Assembly (NCBI GenBank): GCA_964472675.1
Contig: CAYYLO010000003.1
Location: forward strand, 3,768-67,767
Length of the DNA stretch: 64,000 nucleotides
Source of the DNA: an uncultured Gammaproteobacteria bacterium
GTDB taxonomy: Bacteria; Patescibacteriota; Microgenomatia; UBA8517; UBA10165
Reading direction: 5' to 3'
Shown here: piece by piece, positions 10,464 through 33,503 of the stretch
Layout of the letters: each line of letters starts with the position of its first letter
Position numbering within the stretch: the stretch's first letter is position 1
The notes under the pieces: model-generated
Seen by the model: the letters and a program-made list of their open reading frames with translations, nothing else
Database searches by the model: none
Told to the model about the DNA's origin: nothing
Program-made: the position numbers and the translations under genes

Positions 10464-12086
10464 CTAAGATGAGGTGTGTGCGGTTTGCCGCGCCGCTTTA
10501 ACAAAGCCCACAAATAGCGGATGGGGTTGTAAAGGGCGGGATTTTAGCTCAGGGTGAAATTGTGAAGCGATAAAGAAAGGATGACTAGGTAATTCTATGA
10601 CTTCAACCAATTTTCCGTCCGGAGAGGTTCCGGCAAGGACAAGCCCTGCATCCACGAACTGGTCCTTGTAAGTATTATTAAATTCGTATCTGTGTCTGTG
10701 TCTTTCACTAATTTTGCTTTTACCATAGAGTTTGCAAGAGAGAGTTTTGGGGGCAAGAATACATTCCCAGGCGCCGAGTCTCATAGTTCCACCATAGTTA
10801 TGTTCCAATAACTTCTTTTGTTGATCGGTCATGATGTGGATAACCGGATGCTTTGTCTCGGGATCGATTTCGGTTGTGTTAGCGTCTCTCCAGCCTAAAA
10901 TGTTTCTGGCAAACTCAACAGTTGCCAGCTGCATTCCGTAACAAAGCCCCAAATAAGGGATATTATTTTCTCGCGTGTACTTTATTGCTTCAATTTTCCC
11001 CTCTACCCCGCGGGAGCCAAAGCCGCCCGGAACAATTATTCCATGATAAGCTTTCAAAATATTCGGGTTCTGTAATACTTTTTCCGAATCGATCCAACTG
11101 ACAACAGGCTTAAGATTTTGGTTGTATGAGGCGTGTTTTATAGCTTCAATAACAGAAATATAAGCATCAGACAATGTAAAATGCCCGCTGGCAAAATACT
11201 TCCCAACGATGCCTATTTTTACTTCTTCTTTTGCTTCCTCTACCCTTTTTATATATTGTCTCCATTCGACCATGTCTTTCTTTGGTTGGCGCAATTTTAA
11301 TTTTTTCAAAATTCTTTTTGTTAAGTTTCCTGCGTCATAATTTAAGGGCACATCATAAACATTTGACACATCCGGGGCTGAAATTATGTCTTCGGGTTCC
11401 AAACCAGTTGAAACAGCAAGTTTTTTTATTCTCATCTGGTCCAAACCTTGCGACGAACGGGCCAATATTATATCGGGTTGAATGCCAACCGAATTTAAGT
11501 TGCGGACAGACATTTGTGCTGGTTTACTTTTCATCTCGCCCAAAGAGGGTGGAATTGGAAGGTAAGTTATATGAACATGCAAAACGTCATTAGGTTTTTT
11601 GAGTTTCAGAAGACGATTGGCTTCCAAAAAAAGTACATTTTGGTATTCTCCGGCTGTTCCGCCGATTTCAATTAAAACTATGTCAGCATTTTTTGCTCTT
11701 CCTGCTTCTTGAATGCGGCTTAAGATTTCGTTTGTAATATATGTGACAACATCCACACATTCTCCGCCATATTCAAGGTTTCTTTCTCTTTGTAAAAACC
11801 GAATAATAAATCGAGCCTTGAGTAGCAATGTTAGTTTTATTTAAGCTTTCATTCAAAAACCTTTCGTAATGCCCCAGGTCTTGATCAGTTTCTGTTCCGT
11901 CATCCAAAACAAAAACCTCACCGTGGGCAATGGGATTCATAGTTCCAGCATCAATATTTAAATAGGGGGCCATTTTTATAGGGGCAACTTTCAAGCCCGC
12001 GCTTTTAAGGAGGAGGGAATAGATGCTGTGGCAATCCCTTTGCCGATTCCAGAGATGACTCCGCCGGAAATAAAAATATATTTCAT
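10464..12086 (-). pseudogene. pyrG: CTP synthase pyrG interrupted by two frameshifts (-1 near 12008 in a C/G run, +1 in a T5 run near 11795); possibly sequencing errors
   Basis: N-terminal [23 protein letters not shown] in frame of ATG 12086. Middle segment [11 protein letters not shown]...HYERFL...SIYYSV in a shifted frame (ORF 11773-12126). Remainder (GATase domain GLCYGMQ, HRHRYE) back in the original frame (ORF 10464-11828). Confidence 0.8.
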
Positions 12087-15157: not shown

Positions 15158-15739
15158 ATGACAAATCAAGAAGTTCAATATGCAAAAACAGCTCTAACCG
15201 GAAAGATTTCATCATTAAGGAATGATTTCAGTAGAGCTTATTTTAACCTTAATCAATACAGCATCCAAACTAGTCCGTTCCCAATCTTAATGTTCACTAT
15301 GTCTGTAGTAGACTTTTTCTCAGCATTATTAGCTGGATGGAGTGAGTCTAGTCGCAATCAAAATAGATTTCAAACAACAAGAATGATAGATTTCTGCGTT
15401 AATCAGCTTGGATATGGTCGAATTGAAAGTACGGTATTGGTCAAAGTTCACAGACATTCTCTTATGCACACGAGCGATCCTAGAATAAGATCGAATCAAA
15501 ATGGGATATATGGTTGGCAAATCATGAATATCAATCCAAATCATATGCATCTTAGTCCACAACCTAATCAAAATAATATTCAAGTTACTTTGCTTGATGT
15601 TGGAACAGGCAATCTAATTGACGATTTAGAGAACTTCTTAACCACGTCTGGAGGATACTTTGAACTTTTAGATAATGACCCAGAAATTCAGGCTAATTAC
15701 ATGCAATGTATTCAAGAACTTGATAGTCAAACAATATGA
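15158..15739 (+). CDS. hypothetical protein
   Basis: 193-aa ORF, Q/N-rich, no motif. Confidence 0.4.
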   Translation: MTNQEVQYAKTALTGKISSLRNDFSRAYFNLNQYSIQTSPFPILMFTMSVVDFFSALLAGWSESSRNQNRFQTTRMIDFCVNQLGYGRIESTVLVKVHRHSLMHTSDPRIRSNQNGIYGWQIMNINPNHMHLSPQPNQNNIQVTLLDVGTGNLIDDLENFLTTSGGYFELLDNDPEIQANYMQCIQELDSQTI

Positions 15740-15892
15740 ATTAAAAAACCCGGTCCCTGTGGCTAAGATGGATCACTTACGTGTCATCAGTTCTCTAAAA
15801 GTAAGGTACCTTCACTACAAAGATCATTCGGTACCCACATGCTAGCAAAAATTCAGGTTATTGTCCGTTTAAGAATCTGCTAAAATGATGTC

Positions 15893-16723
15893 GTGGGAAA
15901 AACAACTAAAATTGCAATTTTTGAAGGTAAAAGAATCCGCCGCCATTGGAATGACAAAGAGGAAAAATGGTATTTCTCAGTTGTCGACGTCGTGGCAGCA
16001 TTAACAGAAAGTGAAAATCCACAGGTTTATTGGCGAGTCCTTAAGAAAAGATTGATTGATGAAGGTTCCAATGAAACCGTTACAAAATGTAACGCTTTGA
16101 AAATGGTTGCAGCTGATGGGAAAATGAGGCTTACTGATGTGGCAAATACCGAAGTAATGTTACGTATCATCCAATCAATTCCTTCTCCCAATGCAGAACC
16201 TTTTAAACTATGGCTTGCTAGAGTGGGTTATGAACGCATTGAAGAAACTGCTGATCCGGAGCTTGCTATAAATAGAGCTCTTCAAACATATTTAAGAAAA
16301 GGCTACAGTAAAGACTGGATAAACCAACGCTTAAAAAGTATTGAGATACGAAAAGCTTTAATAGATGAATGGGAAACACGGGGAGTAAAAGAAACCAGTG
16401 AGTTCGCTATTTTAACAGATGATATTACTATTGCTTGGACAGGCATGACTACAAAGCAATATAAAAATTTCAAAGGGCTTAAGAAGGAAAATTTACGGGA
16501 TAATATGACAAATTTGGAATTGGTGCTTAACATGTTGGCAGAAACTGCTACAACGGAGATTTCTCAAAAACGTAAGCCTAAAACATTCCCTGATAATAGA
16601 AAAGTTGCCACCGAAGGAGGAACTATTGCTGGAAATGCTAGAAAACAGATTGAATCCAAAAGCGGTAGAAAGGTAATAACAAGGAAGAATGCCAAAGAGT
16701 TAAAACTTATTGGGAATAAGTAA
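15893..16723 (+). CDS. DinD-like DNA-damage-inducible protein (N-terminal Bro-N/antirepressor-like domain)
   Basis: IAIFEGKRIRRHWNDKEEKWYFSVVDVVAALTES matches Bro-N. C-terminal GLKKENLRDNMTNLELVLNMLAETATTE...GRKV resembles E. coli DinD C-terminus. Confidence 0.6.
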   Translation: MGKTTKIAIFEGKRIRRHWNDKEEKWYFSVVDVVAALTESENPQVYWRVLKKRLIDEGSNETVTKCNALKMVAADGKMRLTDVANTEVMLRIIQSIPSPNAEPFKLWLARVGYERIEETADPELAINRALQTYLRKGYSKDWINQRLKSIEIRKALIDEWETRGVKETSEFAILTDDITIAWTGMTTKQYKNFKGLKKENLRDNMTNLELVLNMLAETATTEISQKRKPKTFPDNRKVATEGGTIAGNARKQIESKSGRKVITRKNAKELKLIGNK

Positions 16724-27015: not shown

Positions 27016-27088
27016 GGACAAGTAGCTCAGTTGGAAGAGCATTCGGTTTACATCCGAAAGGTCACAGGTTCGAGCCCTGTCTTGTCCA
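27016..27088 (+). tRNA. tRNA-Val (TAC)
   Basis: Acceptor GGACAAG/CTTGTCC, anticodon loop TTTACAT, T-loop TTCGAGC. Confidence 0.85.
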
Positions 27089-27117
27089 CATTTAGAGACC
27101 GAAAAGAATTTGTCCTC

Positions 27118-27594
27118 TTAAATATCTCTTATTTCATCCTTGGCTCTTTCTGCTTCTAATATCTCAGACTTTTTAGTAGGTGAATAAATACTCCAAGGAA
27201 ACTCAACTCCGAGATGTTCTAAAGTATTAACTTCTTGGTTACCAATAATGCCATAAATATCAATTAGTTTTACACCACATACGGTTAGTTGCATTTTTAG
27301 ATGGTCATAAAAGTACGAGCCACCTCTGGTAAATCTATCTATGGATTTAATAACAAAAAGCTGGATGCCATTGTTAGAGTCTTTACAGTAATCAACAACC
27401 TCCTGCATTGGTTGTTCATCTTTTGAAGCCGACTCCATTAAGAAAAAGAACTTCTTAATGTTTAAGTTATGACTTTTTGCAAACTGTTCTATTTGATCTT
27501 TTTGCGCTTGTGGGGAATCACCCTGAAGGCCTTGTTTTAATGAAGAAATTCTTATCGCTGCTACTGCACTATTAGTAGATAAGTTAGGATTCAT
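27118..27594 (-). pseudogene. large serine recombinase, catalytic domain only (3'-truncated remnant)
   Basis: Catalytic Ser motif AAIRISSLKQ and KSIDRFTRG (DRxxR) align with the resolvase/invertase catalytic domain. ORF ends after the alpha-E helix (ILEAERAKDEIRD), 30 nt from the tRNA-Val 3' end. No recombinase/zinc-ribbon domains follow. Confidence 0.65.
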
Positions 27595-28498
27595 GGTTGA
27601 GCAATTACTTTGTTTTTAAATCGCAACTTTCCATTTAACTGGTCTTCTAAAATCCTATCGACAATAAGGTTTGTAATTACTTGAAGTCTTTCTTCTAGTG
27701 TCAAATTAGAGGTTAAGGTCTTTTATTTTCTGGAGTCTTAGTTTGTCTAAATCGTTCTGTTTTACTCATACCCACTCCTTACACACTATCCGTACTACGG
27801 ATATATAATATCTCAAAAATGATTTGTCTGTCAAGGGGTAAAATGACTTAAAAACTGTGTAAACCTGCTTACACTAAAAAAAGGCAAATTGGAAGCTAAA
27901 TTACTGAAATTTTTGTCGCTCTTATACTTTATATATAATATAAAGAGAGAAGATAAAAAATATATGGCTTCTATATCATAAAAAACACCTGCAAACTAAA
28001 ACTTACTTAACCTAAAATATTTAAAAAACCAAAAAGAAAGCTAGATTAAATAACCCTAATCAAAACTATAATTATCACCAATTTAATTCTATAAAAACTC
28101 ACAATTTCCTGCACCCATGTAGATCCTAAAATTACCACTACGCGTAGTGGTAAAAAATTGATCTTTTTGAAGCTAAATACTTAAAAATCTTTCCTATTCA
28201 TTCCTTATATAGATATAAGAGGATGTAAATTCTGTATAAATAATCTCTAAACTATTAAAATAATCCTTACAAAAAATCTGCAAAATACCTAACTAAAAAC
28301 GTCACTAAAAAATAAAAATCGATCTATACTTACTACTCTTTCTTAACCCAAAACACATATCTTTCTTAATTACCAACAAACATTCCTAAACCTCTGAAAT
28401 GAAAGATGTAATTAAAATTAAAAAACAATTAAATAACAATTAAATAACAAGAGCTTATAATCTTTTACTAAAACAGCCACATCTGATATAATCTCGCA
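27595..28498. other. ~900-nt extremely AT-rich (~25% GC) non-coding tract with 20-bp perfect palindrome and 11-bp tandem repeat
   Basis: No ORF >=60 aa. Palindrome taccactacgcgtagtggta at ~28128-28147. caattaaataa x2 at ~28424-28445. Extended -10 tgatataat at 28481-28489 just before ATG 28499. Confidence 0.6.
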
Positions 28499-29308
28499 AT
28501 GATTGAAGCAGGAACGTCACAGGCACGTCAAGAATTTGTTGGTGGACTTGAAGCAGGAGTTACTCATCGAGTAGTAAATGCTCGCCCAATTACACTTTTA
28601 AGTGAATCTGATGGAAAAACAGTTGTAGTAGCAAGAGATTTTAACAAAACCTTGTTTGTGAGGAGAAATTACAAACAAGTTGCCTTAGATAGAATGAATC
28701 AATTAAATGGTGCATCTTTTGAAGATGCTTGGACAGCCTTCCACCAACTATATAGTAGTGTTGGAATAGAATTAGTCCCAAGCGTTGTGATTCGTCCTGA
28801 TCCGAAAGTTTCAATTGTCGAGGCTCCTGTGGTTGTAGCAAGTGAATATATTGATGGAACAGAATTGTCGTTAGCTCCTACAAAAGCAAAAGTTCAAGTT
28901 GCAGAAGCAATGGGAGCTATGCTTAAAACACCTGGAGAATACTATCCAAGTCTTGAATCAATAAGACGAGATATGTTTAGAGTAGGAAGAAATATAGATA
29001 GGACACCCCGTGTTGTTTTGGTTGATGTTGACCCTTTTTTGGTAGATAGAAAAGCAGTTGAATCAACGCCTGATGAAAGAGATAACTGGTTTTCAGAATA
29101 TATTGTACAAGTAAGGGATCTTCTTTGGGATAGATGGTGTAAAGAAGATGAGAGAGCTACGGTATTGACTGCTTTTGCTCGCCCTCTTGGCTTTGTCCTA
29201 AATACATTTGGTCAGAGGGATGGAGAAAGAACTCTAAGAGCTTTTATGAATGTGCAATCGATGGCTAAGGGAATAGATATGCGTAAATTTTCTTCCTTAC
29301 CTTTTTAA
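28499..29308 (+). CDS. hypothetical protein (269 aa), possible atypical kinase-like fold; leaderless-type start
   Basis: No firm motif. VVLVDVDPF (DFG-like) and RRDMFRVGRNID (catalytic-loop-like) are suggestive only. Promoter -10 ends 9 nt before ATG. Confidence 0.45.
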   Translation: MIEAGTSQARQEFVGGLEAGVTHRVVNARPITLLSESDGKTVVVARDFNKTLFVRRNYKQVALDRMNQLNGASFEDAWTAFHQLYSSVGIELVPSVVIRPDPKVSIVEAPVVVASEYIDGTELSLAPTKAKVQVAEAMGAMLKTPGEYYPSLESIRRDMFRVGRNIDRTPRVVLVDVDPFLVDRKAVESTPDERDNWFSEYIVQVRDLLWDRWCKEDERATVLTAFARPLGFVLNTFGQRDGERTLRAFMNVQSMAKGIDMRKFSSLPF

Positions 29309-29444
29309 TCTTTTTTAATACCTCTATATAATTCTTTATTTTTTGCAGTTCATTGGTGCATAGTAATTTATTCCAGTTCCAGATATAATTGAGCTGTAAA
29401 AATAACAGGCGAAGTTTAGCCTGGGGTAGTCAAACTCTTCAAAT

Positions 29445-30146
29445 ATGGCATATAAAGTACGTGTTCAGTCGAATGATGAATCAGTTTTACAGGATGTGAA
29501 TGGAATTCCTGACGCTTGTCCTGCCTGTGGCAAAGGTATTTCTCCGCTATTCTGCTATCAACATGGTGTCGATACCTGGAGAGCTTATGATGGGTTTTTA
29601 CAAATTGTATTTAGATGCCCAAGAAAAGAATGCCAAAGGTTATTTATTGCTGTATATGGAACTGAAAAAGCATTTGCTGGGACAAATTTGATACTGAGAC
29701 GAACTTTATTAATGGATTTTATGGAGTTTGAAAAATTTCCTGAATCCGTAACAAGTATTTCCAGTCAATTTGAAGCAATTTATAATCAATCCAAAATTGC
29801 AGAAGATAACGGCTTGCATCTAATTGCTGGTCCTGGTTATCGCAAAGCATTGGAGTTTTTGGTTAAAGATTATTTAATTAGAACTGATCCGGAGCATGAA
29901 GACCAGATAAAAAAAGAGCAACTTGGCACAGCGATAAAAAGAATTACTGAAAAAAGGATTGAAGCTTGTGCATCCCGGGCGGCTTGGTTAGGAAATGATG
30001 AGACTCATTATGTTAGAAAATGGGAGGATAAAGATTTACAAGATCTTAAAAATCTTATTAAAATGGTTGTTGATTGGATCGATCACATAGAAAGATCAGA
30101 TGGGTATGAACAAGCGATGCCTTCTCCTGAAATTCCCGCCGATTAA
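29445..30146 (+). CDS. zinc-ribbon (CPxC...CPRKEC) protein with C-terminal DUF4145-like alpha-helical domain
   Basis: CPACGKG...CPRKEC four-Cys motif. C-terminal YRKALEFLVKDYL...RAAWLGNDETHY matches the DUF4145 pattern seen in Abi and type I R-M accessory proteins. Confidence 0.5.
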   Translation: MAYKVRVQSNDESVLQDVNGIPDACPACGKGISPLFCYQHGVDTWRAYDGFLQIVFRCPRKECQRLFIAVYGTEKAFAGTNLILRRTLLMDFMEFEKFPESVTSISSQFEAIYNQSKIAEDNGLHLIAGPGYRKALEFLVKDYLIRTDPEHEDQIKKEQLGTAIKRITEKRIEACASRAAWLGNDETHYVRKWEDKDLQDLKNLIKMVVDWIDHIERSDGYEQAMPSPEIPAD

Positions 30147-30164
30147 AAATGATATACTATCCGT

Positions 30165-30365
30165 ATGGGTGATAAACAACTTGGTAAAAAATTAAAAGAA
30201 GCAAGGGAAAAACTGAAGTTAACTCAAAAGCAAGTTGCAGAAAAATCTGGGGTAACTACAAATTGGTATGCTAGGTTTGAAAGAGGAGAGAAATCAGCTT
30301 CTCTTAAAACAATTAAGGATATTTTTAAGGTCTTGAAGTTAAAAGTACCTTCTCCCTTTAATTAA
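30165..30365 (+). CDS. XRE-family helix-turn-helix transcriptional regulator
   Basis: LGKKLKEAREKLKLTQKQVAEKSGVTTNWYARFERGEK is a classic HTH_3 (Cro/C1) motif. Confidence 0.7.
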   Translation: MGDKQLGKKLKEAREKLKLTQKQVAEKSGVTTNWYARFERGEKSASLKTIKDIFKVLKLKVPSPFN

Positions 30366-30565
30366 TTCTTAGGTTGTAATTTTCCTGATTTTTTGTCTTT
30401 TTCAATTTTCTCCACAACAATTTTTGGTAATCCTTTTAAAGTATCCAATAAGCTAATTGCCTGTTCTCGTGTAGCTCTTTCAGGATGCTTCTTTTTAAGC
30501 TCATTTATTGCCCATTCAATCTCTTTTTCTGTATATTTTGTATTAGTCATGATGCATTTTAGCAA
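30362..30565 (-). CDS. hypothetical small protein, convergent with HTH gene
   Basis: 67-aa ORF; no motif. Confidence 0.3.
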   Translation of the reverse strand: MLKCIMTNTKYTEKEIEWAINELKKKHPERATREQAISLLDTLKGLPKIVVEKIEKDKKSGKLQPKN

Positions 30566-30582
30566 TAAATATATTTGTTCAT

Positions 30583-31176
30583 CTAGTGAAAAGTATCTGC
30601 TTGACTCAATTCGGTTGGTGTCGGCTCAAAATTGAACGTATTCATAATTTCTTGAATCATTTCTTCAAAAGGGCTCTCAATAGGATATTCTGCAGTAAAG
30701 GATACCTGACTTTGTTTTCTATTTAGGATTAATCTATTACTTTTTTTAATATCGCCTTCTGTTGACCACACTAACTTATTATCTAATGTGGGTTTTTCTG
30801 TAACAACAGCTATTCTCAATGTTAAATCACCAATTCTGTTTGGTTCGTGAGCTTGTTCCCATGTAACGTGTGTGGAATAGATTCTAATTTCTGAAGAAGA
30901 ATGAGCATCTATACTGACAACACTCCACTCGGAAGGGAGTTTAAAAGTGAATGCATTCGCTTCAGGTTTCCAAACTTTCCAGGCTTTTGGTTCGTCTATA
31001 GCATTTGGTTGAGCAGAAATGGTAGGAATGTTTGATTGAACAAAGGAATCCTTAATCGAGGCAGAATCTTTTTTCATCCTTAAAGAATACAATCCAAAAC
31101 CTATTAAAAGAACCATGCCAATTAAGCAAATGAGTGGTACAAGGTTACCTTTTTTATATGATTTAGATCTTTTCAT
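30583..31176 (-). CDS. hypothetical membrane-anchored protein
   Basis: N-terminal TM helix (LVPLICLIGMVLLIGFGLY); no motif. Confidence 0.4.
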   Translation of the reverse strand: MKRSKSYKKGNLVPLICLIGMVLLIGFGLYSLRMKKDSASIKDSFVQSNIPTISAQPNAIDEPKAWKVWKPEANAFTFKLPSEWSVVSIDAHSSSEIRIYSTHVTWEQAHEPNRIGDLTLRIAVVTEKPTLDNKLVWSTEGDIKKSNRLILNRKQSQVSFTAEYPIESPFEEMIQEIMNTFNFEPTPTELSQADTFH

Positions 31177-31196
31177 CTATTGCATTTTAGCAAAAA

Positions 31197-31643
31197 TCAT
31201 AAAACTTTGTTCAGTTTTAAGAAATTAAACATTTCTAGGGTTAAATCTGTATTATTAATTCTTCTCATAATCTCGCGACTATGCGTTTGAGAAAGTATGT
31301 TTAATGACCCTTCCCAAAGTACTTTTCGATCCAAAATAGCTAATTTGCGGTGATGGTTGCCAACGCATAGTAAAACTTGTACTCCGAGAGTCTCAAAGTA
31401 CTGAATTTCCTCCTCAGATTGGACTTCATGTTCTCTAGGATCGCGGGTAATTACAAAGACCTTAACGCCTATATTAATTAATCTTTCGAAAATGGGTTTT
31501 AGGGTTTTCATCCGGGCAGAGCTGACATATGGAGATTCGATGATAACTTCCTTTCTACAGTCCTCTAAATCCTTTAAAAAAGCTCTATAAAAGGTTTTTT
31601 CGTCATGAAGCTCTGAGTTAAACACCGGAGTCTTCCTCCTCAA
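31197..31643 (-). CDS. phospholipase D-family (single HKD motif) nuclease, Nuc/BfiI-like
   Basis: HHRKLAILDRKVLWEGSLN carries HxKx4Dx6GSxN; 148 aa, would need to dimerise. Confidence 0.65.
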   Translation of the reverse strand: MRRKTPVFNSELHDEKTFYRAFLKDLEDCRKEVIIESPYVSSARMKTLKPIFERLINIGVKVFVITRDPREHEVQSEEEIQYFETLGVQVLLCVGNHHRKLAILDRKVLWEGSLNILSQTHSREIMRRINNTDLTLEMFNFLKLNKVL

Positions 31644-31719
31644 TATCTATGATAGAAACCTGGCCTTCGAAGTAGGTAAACCCAAGATCCTTTAATTTTT
31701 GATATAATCGGGTGAGACT

Positions 31720-31977
31720 TTGGAATATGGTGTTCCAACCATCATCCAAATTGTCCACCATATGGCAGCTAAAAAATTGAGAAGATCATCGACTAATAAA
31801 GTTGTTAGTGGTATATTAGGTGGAATCGGAGAATACTTAAATATTGATCCGGTTGTGGCAAGAATTGTGTTTCTTGCGATCGCAATTTTTACAGGCTTTA
31901 TTCCCGGGCTACTATTCTATTTATTAGCACATTTAGTAGTCCCGGAAGCATCAAACGAAAAATTTAAGCCGAGCTAG
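31720..31977 (+). CDS. PspC-domain membrane protein (alternative start ATG 31762)
   Basis: KKLRRSSTNKVVSGILGGIGEYLNIDPVVARIVFLAIAIFTG..LLFYLLAHLVVP matches PspC domain. Confidence 0.6.
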   Translation: MEYGVPTIIQIVHHMAAKKLRRSSTNKVVSGILGGIGEYLNIDPVVARIVFLAIAIFTGFIPGLLFYLLAHLVVPEASNEKFKPS

Positions 31978-32040
31978 CCAAGTTGGTCACGGCGGGCCCC
32001 TGAAGAGGGTCAGATTTCGGTTCGATTCCGGAGCTCGGCA
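31968..32040 (+). tRNA. tRNA-Phe (GAA)
   Basis: Acceptor GCCGAGC/GCTCGGC, anticodon loop CTGAAGA, T-loop TTCGATT. Confidence 0.8.
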
Positions 32041-32114
32041 CAAACAAATCACATTCGTCCGCGGGTATAACAACCTTGCTTCGCAAGAACGTTGTACGCC
32101 GCTCAAGTATTTTC

Positions 32115-32189: not shown

Positions 32190-32244
32190 ACGGGATACCC
32201 TGGTCAGAAAAGGCCTGAATAGCTTGATATAACGGGCTAATCTT
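32190..32244 (+). repeat. conserved tRNA-Gly 3' trailer element, copy B
   Basis: See copy A at 12979-13033. Confidence 0.7.
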
Positions 32245-32896
32245 GTGGATTCTCACAAAGAATAAACCTTTCCTGGGGTCCAGTGTGATAAAAATAAGTT
32301 TTATCTTCTAGAGATAGACTTATCTTATAACCACCAACAACCGCCAACGTGTATGCCTTGCCAGGTTCTGGACAACCTAAGCTTCCATCTCTCCAGATCG
32401 CTTCTGTCACACTATTAACAATGACCGTATCTCTGCCCACACTTAATCTTTTTGACAAATTGTCGACCACAGCCATAATTAAACTGTGGTTTTTTCCACT
32501 ACAAACACGTATGGGGTTACAAGGAGCTTTCACGCAGATAATTCTTGAGTAATAACAATTTGCTGACTTATCCATTTTCAACTTACATATATTATTTATA
32601 CATTCAGCTGTTCCCTCACATACTCTTTGACAAAGTTTATCCTCTTCACTAATGTGTTTTTTATTCATAGCTGTACATTTACAGATGTTTTTTCCACAAT
32701 CCTCATCCGAGTTACAGGAAAAACTCTCAGGATTGTATGGCTCTCCTGGGATTATTTTTGGCGGAAAACCGTGTTTATTAATTAAAAGAGTCTGAAGAAT
32801 TGTTGACGAATTTACCAAATAGAAACCTGCTGCTAATAATATTAAAACTAGTCCTATTAGAACAAGTGAATTCATTTTTAATTGTTTTAACCCCAT
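32237..32896 (-). CDS. cysteine-rich secreted/membrane-anchored protein, hypothetical
   Basis: N-terminal TM helix, then ~20 Cys in CxxxC-type spacings. Confidence 0.4.
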   Translation of the reverse strand: MGLKQLKMNSLVLIGLVLILLAAGFYLVNSSTILQTLLINKHGFPPKIIPGEPYNPESFSCNSDEDCGKNICKCTAMNKKHISEEDKLCQRVCEGTAECINNICKLKMDKSANCYYSRIICVKAPCNPIRVCSGKNHSLIMAVVDNLSKRLSVGRDTVIVNSVTEAIWRDGSLGCPEPGKAYTLAVVGGYKISLSLEDKTYFYHTGPQERFILCENPQD

Positions 32897-33001
32897 AAGC
32901 TTAATTTATCAGTTTTACTGATATATTTCCATCAATTTGCTAAAAAGAGATAGAGTTCATAAACTATTGACAAAAATTAAGAAATATTGTTAAATATTCT
33001 T

Positions 33002-33268
33002 ATGTCTACAGTAACAATATCACTCCCAAGTCAGATTGCCAAGCAGGTAGACTCTGAAGCCAAAAGACAGGGATTTGCTACCCGTTCTGAGTTTATTAGA
33101 AGCCTAATACGCAAACACTTTACAAAAAGTCAGTTTGAATTGGAGGAATTTGAACCAGTACCTCTAAATCAACTTAAAATGGAACTTGCCCAGACTGGGA
33201 AGCACAGCGAGGAATTTATAAATAGTGTTATTGAGGGCTTTGGAAAATCCTCTTTATATGAGAACTAA
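33002..33268 (+). CDS. ribbon-helix-helix antitoxin (CopG/ParD/RelB-like)
   Basis: MSTVTISLPSQIAKQVDSEAKRQGFATRSEFIRSLIRK is an RHH fold signature. Confidence 0.6.
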   Translation: MSTVTISLPSQIAKQVDSEAKRQGFATRSEFIRSLIRKHFTKSQFELEEFEPVPLNQLKMELAQTGKHSEEFINSVIEGFGKSSLYEN

Positions 33269-33503
33269 AGATCTAAGACTAGATCTTGTTAAATATCTTA
33301 AAAAGCGCAGGCTCGAAAATAAGTTCCAAAAACAGTTCGATCTCTTACTCCAGGACTTCCGACACCCATCACTTCATACAGAAATCCTAGAACCTAAATA
33401 TCGTAAAATTTATTCATTTCGCATTGATCAAAAATATAGAGCAATATTTATAGTAAAAGAAGGAAAGATTCTAATTATTGATATTAATGATCATTATCAG
33501 TAG
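33258..33503 (+). CDS. RelE/ParE-family toxin
   Basis: Overlaps antitoxin by 11 nt. C-terminal KIYSFRIDQKYRAIFIVKEGKILIIDINDH matches the RelE/ParE core. Confidence 0.55.
   Translation: MRTKDLRLDLVKYLKKRRLENKFQKQFDLLLQDFRHPSLHTEILEPKYRKIYSFRIDQKYRAIFIVKEGKILIIDINDHYQ

Follow-up and report, generated by a model that had tools for sequence, protein, structure and literature searches.

An island beside tRNA-Val(tac) in a Candidatus Blackburnbacteria genome: a probable remnant of a small serine-recombinase element with independent cargo genes

We analysed an island of 4.7 kb between tRNA-Val(tac) and tRNA-Phe(gaa) in a stretch of 64,000 nucleotides (nt) of contig CAYYLO010000003.1 (assembly GCA_964472675.1, positions 3,768 to 67,767), hereafter called the window. 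The host is Candidatus Blackburnbacteria, a member of the candidate phyla radiation (CPR). Our data make it probable that the island represents what is left, now fixed in place, of a small integrative element of the serine-recombinase type, located at the 3' end of tRNA-Val(tac) and composed of a backbone and independent cargo. An earlier reading of the sequence alone, referred to here as the original prediction, had proposed that six genes of the island form one novel defence cassette, namely those for a 269-amino-acid (aa) protein, a zinc-ribbon/DUF4145 protein, an XRE-family regulator, a 67-aa protein, a transmembrane (TM) protein and a single-HKD nuclease of the phospholipase D (PLD) family. 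Comparison with related loci suggests that these genes are three units of separate history: the element backbone, the zinc-ribbon/HEPN gene and the 269-aa gene.

The element would have inserted at the 3' end of tRNA-Val(tac) and split an ancestral tRNA-Val/tRNA-Phe pair. An internal deletion would have cut its large serine recombinase (LSR) to the first 158 codons, with loss of the DNA-binding domains, and a small open reading frame (ORF) upstream of the LSR would have been frameshifted. The backbone would run along the minus strand from a 47-aa ORF through the PLD nuclease, a variable slot (here with a 197-aa TM protein), the 67-aa protein, the convergent XRE gene, the cargo slot, the small ORF and the LSR to the tRNA. 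The cargo slot would have taken up two single genes independently, the zinc-ribbon/DUF4145 HEPN gene and the 269-aa orphan. The features of the region are as follows.

27016-27089, plus strand: tRNA-Val(tac), called by ARAGORN and Rfam; left boundary and presumed integration target
27090-27117: spacer of 28 nt between the tRNA 3' end and the break in the recombinase gene
27118-27594, minus strand: truncated LSR gene (Pfam Resolvase, E=2e-7); codons 1-158, the catalytic domain through helix alpha-E
27600-27770, minus strand: frameshifted small ORF upstream of the LSR, seen in three-frame translation; intact with 52-59 aa in loci L028, L037 and L054
27771-27855, minus strand: conserved block upstream of the recombinase operon, with blastn homology to L054
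27856-28498: AT-rich non-coding DNA in the cargo slot, 25% GC, A/C-skewed
28499-29308, plus strand: 269-aa near-orphan protein, single-gene cargo, three clusters only
29445-30146, plus strand: zinc-ribbon and DUF4145/HEPN protein of 233 aa, stand-alone cargo gene
30165-30365, plus strand: XRE-family helix-turn-helix regulator of 66 aa (HTH_3, E=1e-13); convergent with the 67-aa gene, 4-nt overlap
30362-30565, minus strand: 67-aa protein of the PLD module, with homologues at the same position in L054 and L052
30583-31176, minus strand: 197-aa protein with an N-terminal TM anchor, in the second variable slot; seen only in this lineage
31197-31643, minus strand: single-HKD PLD-family nuclease of 148 aa (PLDc_2, E=7e-9)
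31618-31761, minus strand: 47-aa ORF with an acidic tail, overlapping the PLD start; first gene of the PLD operon
31755-31762: right element junction, between the end of L054 homology (31762) and the start of L016 flank homology (31755)
31762-31977, plus strand: PspC-domain membrane protein (PspC, E=3e-19), 87% identical in L016; chromosomal flank
31968-32041, plus strand: tRNA-Phe(gaa), called by ARAGORN and Rfam; next gene of the tRNA array

Integration site, recombinase remnant and element backbone

Both bounding tRNAs lie inside an array of the order Leu-Leu-Gln-Val ... Phe-Gly (ARAGORN, Rfam), and relatives of the site were retrieved via the flanking gene for SBP_bac_5, a solute-binding protein. 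The distance between tRNA-Val(tac) and tRNA-Phe is 62 nt in L017, another Blackburnbacteria genome, 42 nt in L018 and 75 nt in L054. These are empty sites, and the stretch from 27090 to about 31761 is a true insertion that splits an ancestral tRNA-Val/tRNA-Phe pair; on this point the original prediction was right. The window has a GC content of 41.6%, the island one of 34.0% and the stretch 27856-28498 one of 25.3%. The whole island block recurs with 99.98-100% identity in several assemblies of this species, both metagenome-assembled genomes (MAGs) and Logan assemblies.

The right end of the island had been placed at 31967. In L016, the closest relative (SBP_bac_5 protein 85% identical), the PspC gene, tRNA-Phe and tRNA-Gly are retained without any island gene nearby, and DNA homology to the window begins at 31755, while the blastn homology of the sister element in L054 stops at 31762. 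Since L016 keeps PspC beside tRNA-Phe, with homology from 31755, we assign PspC to the chromosomal flank and not to the island. The two homology limits place the right boundary at about 31755-31762, and the predicted boundary has to be given up, as the chromosomal PspC gene lies between the cargo and tRNA-Phe. All six ORFs of the predicted gene list were recovered; the 47-aa ORF (31618-31761) and the PspC gene had been missed. The stop-codon region of PspC overlaps the first 10 nt of tRNA-Phe (31968-31977), a layout that is the same in L016, and the ATG of the 47-aa ORF (31761) abuts that of PspC (31762) at the element junction. Beyond PspC, the L016 contig changes in character, with a PurM-like gene of high GC content and a run of N (L016:15200-16642). 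Because this contig end is possibly chimeric or mis-scaffolded, L016 is uninformative on what adjoins tRNA-Val there.

The recombinase gene had been described as a truncated LSR catalytic domain, and our data agree with this. The ORF retains the N-terminal Resolvase domain (PF00239) with its catalytic serine. The match covers only profile positions 2-82 of 145, and the ORF stops at residue 158 without a Recombinase domain (PF07508), a zinc beta-ribbon (PF13408) or a C-terminal coiled coil; hence, we regard the protein as a remnant and not as a functional member of the family. A single-sequence PDB search with the remnant gave no match. Full-length relatives were found by tblastn in L054 (574 aa, 93% identical over residues 1-158), L037 (600 aa, 76%) and L028 (573 aa, 62%), and the LSR of the window has lost about 415-440 codons. 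In Pfam searches the LSRs of L054 and L037 match Resolvase and Zn_ribbon_recom, and that of L054 matches Recombinase as well; domains of the DNA-binding side are also present in the LSR of L007, with a weaker match in L037. DNA homology to the full-length LSRs ends exactly after codon 158, with a TAA stop immediately after it.

The small ORF upstream of the LSR is disrupted by a frameshift. It reads MSKTERFRQTKTPENKRP followed by a stop in one frame and LTSNLTLEERLQVITNLIVDRILEDQ... in another, where L054 has the continuous ...TKTPKKERPLTSNLTLEERLKVIANLIVDRI... The truncation and the frameshift are identical in the MAGs GCA_016187265.1 and GCA_964583055.1 and in Logan assemblies, so neither is an assembly error. 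The best promoter-like site of the region falls into the conserved block 27771-27855 (27834-27805, TTGACA-18-TATTAT), in a scan whose total is not above chance; the same holds for the counts of the terminator scan of the region.

It might be argued that the 158-aa product has been domesticated and still functions on its own, for instance as a regulator or as a trans-acting catalytic subunit, and is not a dead remnant. The ORF is intact, has an ATG start, keeps the catalytic-domain motif ...AIRISSLKQG... and the conserved promoter-like block upstream, and is identical in several assemblies. However, for DNA binding and synapsis serine integrases depend on a Recombinase domain, a zinc ribbon and a coiled coil, and the product has none of them. 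Moreover, its stop codon coincides exactly with the homology breakpoint, a frameshift disrupts the co-transcribed ORF upstream, and all homologues found that share its N-terminus are full length (573-600 aa). We consider a domesticated protein very improbable. As the remnant is devoid of every DNA-binding domain of serine integrases, the element can presumably no longer excise.

In relatives of the recombinase the 3' end of the gene overlaps a tRNA in antisense, namely tRNA-Glu in L028 and L037, tRNA-Val(gac) in L054 and tRNA-Lys(ctt) in L070 and L094, and the remnant and tRNA-Val(tac) have the same convergent geometry as the intact relatives. The integrase C-terminus is an antisense translation of the 3' half of the tRNA, which implies that attP lies inside the integrase gene. 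The last approximately 60 nt of the integrase coding sequence are antisense to the tRNA in L028:464-2204, L037:1774-3576, L054:15582-17317, L070:8236-9641 and L094:6434-7973, the overlapped tRNAs being Glu-ttc, Val-gac and Lys-ctt.

At the left junction the first 10 nt or so of the spacer (ATTTAGAGA) resemble the junction between element and tRNA in L054 (ATTAAGAGA). The tRNA-Val junction itself reads ACATTTAGAGA in the window versus ACATTAAGAGA at the tRNA-Val(gac) of L054, and four other Val(tac) copies differ in the alignment. This likeness is suggestive only; it hints at an internal deletion of about 1.2 kb and not at loss of the element end.

The window shares three blocks of DNA with L054 (blastn). 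Positions 31762-31188 correspond to L054 9864-10450 (76% identity), 30542-30144 to 10712-11097 (78%) and 27855-27120 to 15319-16056 (83%). These blocks are collinear and include both ends, that of the PLD gene and that of the recombinase, with unlike DNA in two variable slots. In L054 the intact order is a 61-aa ORF, PLD, an 81-aa membrane protein, a 59-aa protein and XRE on the opposite strand, followed by about 4 kb of other genes, a 59-aa ORF and the integrase ending in tRNA-Val(gac). The cargo slot of the window (27856-30143) corresponds to L054 11098-15318, where the genes have no recognisable defence domains. In the second slot L054 carries an 81-aa CBU_0592-like membrane protein where the window has the 197-aa TM protein. 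The latter had no family match in profile searches including Pfam, NCBIfam, PADLOC and PHROGs, and its gene is absent from all of 80 metagenomic PLD loci and from L046, L052 and L054.

The layout of L070 is the same as that of the window, with a type I CBASS in the cargo slot. This CBASS is complete (L070:5499-9716), consisting of a CD-NTase (PADLOC Cyclase, E=1e-122) and a Cap15-like 2TM effector (E=3e-74). The L070 integrase is devoid of its N-terminal approximately 110 residues and ends in tRNA-Lys, so that L070 represents a second, independently decayed copy. The element measures about 5-9 kb, and no conjugation, replication or capsid genes were identified in it.

The collinear backbone also bears on the idea that the region is an ordinary hypervariable chromosomal spot beside a tRNA array, which received unrelated insertions piecemeal and was never one element. 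The neighbourhood is variable: L016 and L040 carry different inserts at these tRNAs or close to them, and relatives also differ in what lies from SBP_bac_5 to tRNA-Gly. However, three collinear blocks with 76-83% DNA identity to L054, both ends included, and the same architecture in L070 render a history without any element very improbable.

The gap of 0.9 kb beside the recombinase had been described as AT-rich and non-coding. No ORF of at least 40 aa was found in 27595-28498, in agreement with this description, but the gap contains the frameshifted small ORF and the conserved block up to 27855. Rfam detected only tRNAs in the region and no non-coding RNA in the gap. The AT-rich part shows only a weak similarity of 68 nt to L054 (blastn). 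Its GC skew goes down to -0.53 (27856-28498), and its sole tandem repeat is an 11-nt AATTAAATAAC unit in 3.2 copies (28416-28450). An internal duplication of about 280 nt was considered and found unconvincing, with only few short repeats about 280 nt apart.

Three observations speak against a serine-recombinase element as the origin of the island. Firstly, the two junctions showed no att-type direct or inverted repeats, and the right boundary no duplicated tRNA fragment. Serine integrases can do without flanking att repeats, as their sites need only a 2-bp core, and the absence is therefore weak evidence either way. Secondly, a search by the exact 269-aa and PspC proteins for a strain of the same species with an empty site returned only island-bearing contigs. 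Thirdly, 26 of 35 metagenomic PLD loci of at least 6 kb have no recombinase in the assembled sequence, and for this reason the PLD module may be independent and not part of an element backbone.

The PLD nuclease/XRE module

The XRE regulator and the single-HKD PLD protein were both correctly named by the original prediction. The PLD motifs H98-x-K100-x4-D105 and G112-S113-x-N115 are invariant in 37 homologues. With HxKx4D and GSxN in a single domain of about 150 aa, the protein corresponds to the Nuc/Zucchini type of the PLD/HKD superfamily, and one such set of motifs in a domain of this size implies a homodimeric active site. The same single HxKx4D and GSxN in about 150 aa are known from Nuc of pKM101, NucT, Zucchini/MitoPLD and the catalytic domain of BfiI. 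Nuc and NucT possess a signal peptide, whereas the protein of the window has none. The best PDB sequence match is Zucchini/MitoPLD (E=3e-4), with weak matches to NucT and BfiI; a search of PDB with the single sequence gave no match. The invariant motifs, the absent signal peptide and the match to Zucchini point to a cytoplasmic homodimeric nuclease.

The PLD family comprises 2500 clusters, and the top 119 matches after the self cluster are 65-84% identical. The clade is highly conserved and so far found only in CPR sequences, with no match in phage, plasmid or IMG/VR collections. In comparison with other single-HKD nucleases, the protein belongs to a tight clade of its own with fixed partners, a small upstream ORF and a convergent XRE gene.

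The 47-aa ORF that opens the PLD operon has homologues in L054 (61 aa) and L070 (55 aa) with the common motif LGFTY(F/Y)xGxVxIIxxEE, and its C-terminus is acidic (…LGFTYFEGQVSIIDIEEEDSGV). Similarity to this ORF adjoins PLD in 35 of the 67 loci with at least 220 nt upstream, in most cases with E<1e-3. A small antitoxin gene located upstream of a toxin gene and overlapping it is the classic layout of type II toxin-antitoxin (TA) systems, and by this analogy the 47-aa ORF would stand in an antitoxin-like position. It has no family match, and the comparison with type II TA systems revealed only the layout of a conserved small, overlapping upstream gene.

A metagenome scan with the PLD protein delivered 80 loci, of which 49 have at least 900 nt downstream of PLD and are informative. 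We found a convergent XRE gene within 1.2 kb of PLD in 36 of these 49 loci, on the opposite strand in 36 of 36. The gap between PLD and XRE is bimodal, being either at most 35 nt or about 200-440 nt with a small gene between. As the short gap occurs in 10 of the 36 loci, the 67-aa gene is an optional part of the module. In each of the three independent contexts of the closest PLD homologues (L046, L050/L054 and L052), a small gene and a convergent XRE gene of 66-73 aa likewise follow. The 67-aa protein is 84% identical to the 59-aa protein of L054 and 42% identical to the 63-aa protein of L052, both at the same position, and had no family match in profile searches. The XRE protein is 74% identical to that of L054, again at the same position.

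Since XRE accompanies PLD and not the homologues of the zinc-ribbon protein, we attribute it to the PLD module. It was also considered as a partner or antitoxin of the zinc-ribbon protein; this was rejected, as the closest homologues of the latter have no downstream XRE gene and XRE travels with PLD. The 233-aa gene ends 19 nt before the start of XRE, and backbone homology begins only 21 nt upstream of XRE. From this late start of homology it follows that XRE lost its native upstream region, and the gene may now be read through from the cargo genes. The XRE regulator may restrain the PLD nuclease, possibly with help from the small acidic ORF upstream. The module would, as the most tentative step of the proposed mechanism, serve the maintenance of the element or the exclusion of competing DNA.

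A serine integrase is present in 9 of the 35 loci of at least 6 kb. Its gene lies at the distal end of the element in some loci, as it does in the window, and directly upstream of PLD in the others; on a circle these two orders are the same.

The MkoC and DrmC nuclease domains of Mokosh and DISARM match the PLD protein in PADLOC, the former through its C-terminal region (E=9e-11). None of the partners of these systems (the helicase/ATPase MkoA/MkoB, DrmA, DrmB, a methylase) occurs in the island or in the 80 related loci, and the module cannot be counted as a member of either.

These data leave some room for a different view of the module, in which the 47-aa ORF, PLD, the optional small protein and the convergent XRE gene form a self-contained TA-like or anti-phage system that merely rides on recombinase elements. 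The module occurs in many metagenomic loci, mostly without a recombinase in the assembled sequence, and the small acidic ORF overlapping the nuclease start would correspond to the antitoxin-toxin order described above. Furthermore, XRE matches controller proteins of restriction-modification systems and CapH in PADLOC, and the nuclease matches to MkoC and DrmC fit the same picture. On the other hand, the order of the module and its orientation relative to the recombinase are kept in three elements (window, L054 and L070), and in five further distinct loci the recombinase lies immediately upstream of the PLD module, in the same circular order. For a defence effector, 59-84% identity over many lineages is a high value, nothing was found in the phage, plasmid and IMG/VR collections, and no PADLOC system model fits the whole set. 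We therefore regard a self-contained system as possible but doubtful, and prefer to view the module as part of the element backbone.

A bolder proposal, which we consider unlikely, is that the four-part module represents an uncharacterised nuclease-based immunity or addiction system, so far found only in CPR bacteria, and forms the backbone of an undescribed family of defence-shuttling mini-elements. The integrase gene of this family would end inside the target tRNA, and its defence cargo, represented by CBASS in L070 and by the RAZR-like gene in the window, would move between ultra-small symbiotic bacteria. If this were true, the 269-aa orphan would be a further defence or counter-defence gene.

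Cargo genes of the island

The 233-aa protein belongs to a large family of 2299 clusters at 50% identity and 3974 clusters at 90% identity. DUF4145 matches 49 of 77 family members, with a score of only E=0.039 for the protein of the window. C25, C28, C58, D185 and H188 are invariant in the family, C63 is kept in 76 of 77 members and R178 in 69 of 77; further features are G129, E137 and the motif R178-AAWLGNDET-H188. In the AF2 model (pLDDT 90.5) a zinc-ribbon region of beta-sheet at the N-terminus is followed by a helical bundle at the C-terminus, and residues 35-89 form a four-stranded beta region (pLDDT 66-94 per 10-residue block). The best structural matches of the model are HEPN folds. The protein carries a zinc ribbon and a HEPN fold, and it matches phrog_1305 with E=3e-36.

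The family is found on various mobile elements. Full-length homologues occur in 48 phage records, mostly Streptococcus prophages, with the Javan197 copy inside the lysogeny module. Other homologues are located on plasmids, one of them beside ToxN/AbiQ on a Vibrio conjugative plasmid. The closest homologues (81%, 68% and 63% identity) lie in three unrelated neighbourhoods, with DNA homology limited to the ORF. In one of these, L009:7727-8460, the 81% homologue faces two convergent neighbours, which encode a 144-aa DpnI-like protein (E=1e-6) and an 88-aa protein, and the locus may be another small defence neighbourhood.

DUF4145 was placed in the HEPN superfamily in 2013, and fusions to zinc ribbons were noted at the same time (PMC3710099). 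RAZR (PD-T7-4), the ring-activated zinc-finger RNase of E. coli UMB1727 (RRL46918.1; PMC13017515, PMC9519451), combines an N-terminal Cys4 zinc ribbon with a DUF4145 divergent HEPN RNase domain. As a single gene it provides abortive infection, and the protein becomes active when it assembles around portal-like rings of the phage (PMC13017515). The protein of the window has both the N-terminal Cys4 zinc ribbon and the C-terminal DUF4145/divergent HEPN domain. It further resembles RAZR as a single-gene unit on mobile elements and near integrases, and in its size (about 220-235 aa; 233 here versus 219 in RAZR). The conserved Arg and invariant His of its HEPN helix may correspond to the catalytic pair of RAZR.

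Several findings weigh against a close relationship. The Arg-His spacing is Rx9H (R178/H188) in the 233-aa protein and, by description, Rx7H (R146/H154) in RAZR. The PADLOC profile for PD-T7-4 (PDLC04109) matched neither the protein of the window nor three plasmid and prophage homologues, and only 1 of 77 family members (E=0.035). No RAZR chain was recovered from PDB with the protein, by sequence or by fold. Moreover, the zinc-ribbon region comprises about 65 residues in RAZR and about 90 here, and the host is E. coli in the one case and a CPR bacterium in the other. Phage sensing, a 24-mer ring and single-stranded RNA cleavage are described for RAZR, whereas the protein of the window is known from its sequence and predicted structure. 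Because the PADLOC model fails and the Arg-His spacing differs, we call the protein RAZR-like and not a member of the RAZR family. By analogy, it is most likely a RAZR-like abortive-infection RNase. Its architecture, fold and context suggest that it would act as RAZR does, with the zinc ribbon sensing a phage protein and the HEPN domain cleaving RNA. If RAZR-like proteins work in CPR bacteria, ring-sensing immunity extends to organisms with tiny genomes.

The second cargo gene encodes the 269-aa protein, which falls into only three clusters among 5.8 billion proteins (100%, 83% and 78% identity). There was no match in Pfam, NCBIfam, PADLOC, PHROGs, PDB profiles, plasmids or IMG/VR, and the AlphaFold model, built from only three sequences, is unusable (pLDDT 41.6). 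Weak kinase-like patterns had been read into this protein; the family, PDB and PHROGs searches gave no match that would bear this out. DNA homology is limited to the gene and 13-43 nt on each side.

The 83% homologue (L007) is flanked by a Y-family polymerase gene on one side and by type-IV-secretion pilin genes on the other, and the 78% homologue (L008) has a phosphoglucomutase-like ORF downstream. The locus of the former, L007:3-14376 (GCA_034680565.1, a CPR contig), is an apparently complete conjugative element. It encodes a serine integrase, an XRE regulator, a TraG/TrwB-like coupling protein, a Replic_Relax relaxase, SRAP and a Y-family polymerase, and also two pilin-like proteins of the type IV secretion system, a VirB4-like ATPase and an M23 peptidase, with the 269-aa homologue just upstream of the pilins.

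The mobility of the two cargo genes bears on the proposal of one novel multi-gene defence system. None of the six genes is a housekeeping gene, they are closely packed in the island, two of them have domains common in defence systems, and the block is nearly identical in several assemblies of the species. However, the co-occurrence of all six is confined to that one species. The 269-aa homologues are found in a conjugative element or upstream of a phosphoglucomutase-like ORF, those of the 233-aa protein in three unrelated contexts, and the DNA homology of either cargo gene extends no more than tens of nucleotides beyond its ORF; the two genes move independently. None of the 80 metagenomic PLD loci carries the 269-aa, 233-aa or TM gene. 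In profile searches the 269-aa, 67-aa and 197-aa proteins remained without a match. The claim of novelty also fails for the zinc-ribbon/DUF4145 protein, which matches the described architecture of RAZR/PD-T7-4 (PMC13017515). A single six-gene defence system is thus largely refuted and in our view extremely improbable.

Comparison with known elements and variation of the tRNA array

The composite element shares several properties with LSR integrative elements or prophages and with decaying tRNA islands, among them the location next to a tRNA, the low GC content, a terminal recombinase gene and an interior cargo of accessory or defence genes. Decay of the recombinase likewise fixes such tRNA islands in place. 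The usual tRNA islands use a tyrosine integrase, whereas this element has a serine integrase whose 3' coding end overlaps the tRNA in antisense in intact relatives. As in P2/P4 hotspots and the defence loci of integrative and conjugative elements, a variable slot between backbone genes holds defence genes (CBASS in L070, the RAZR-like gene in the window); the differences lie in the lineage, here CPR, and in the backbone genes. Hotspots of defence cargo in mobile elements and serine recombinases as markers of defence genes have been described previously (PMC9519451, PMC13552941).

Each component is already known in kind, that is the tRNA island, the integrase remnant, the zinc-ribbon/HEPN gene, the single-HKD nuclease and XRE. 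What appears to be undescribed in the literature searched is the CPR element family with the integrase 3' end inside a tRNA and a PLD/XRE backbone, and also the conserved PLD module without phage, plasmid or IMG/VR relatives. The advance is a modest extension and not a new category. Its value is mostly corrective, in that an apparent six-gene cassette resolves into a decayed element, a defence gene of known type and an orphan. Mobile elements and immunity of CPR/Patescibacteria are poorly charted, and an element family with a defined cargo slot may be useful there, as may the conserved PLD-nuclease/XRE module that recurs in many metagenomic loci.

The variable stretch from SBP_bac_5 to tRNA-Gly (window 32237-33503) contains a Cys-rich secreted protein of 219 aa and a pair of RHH_1 and a 92-aa protein, probably a toxin-antitoxin pair. 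L016:11429-13515 holds a two-gene pair that by its appearance may be VapBC and a Bro-N protein, and L017 is empty there. The whole tRNA array is a hotspot of accessory genes.

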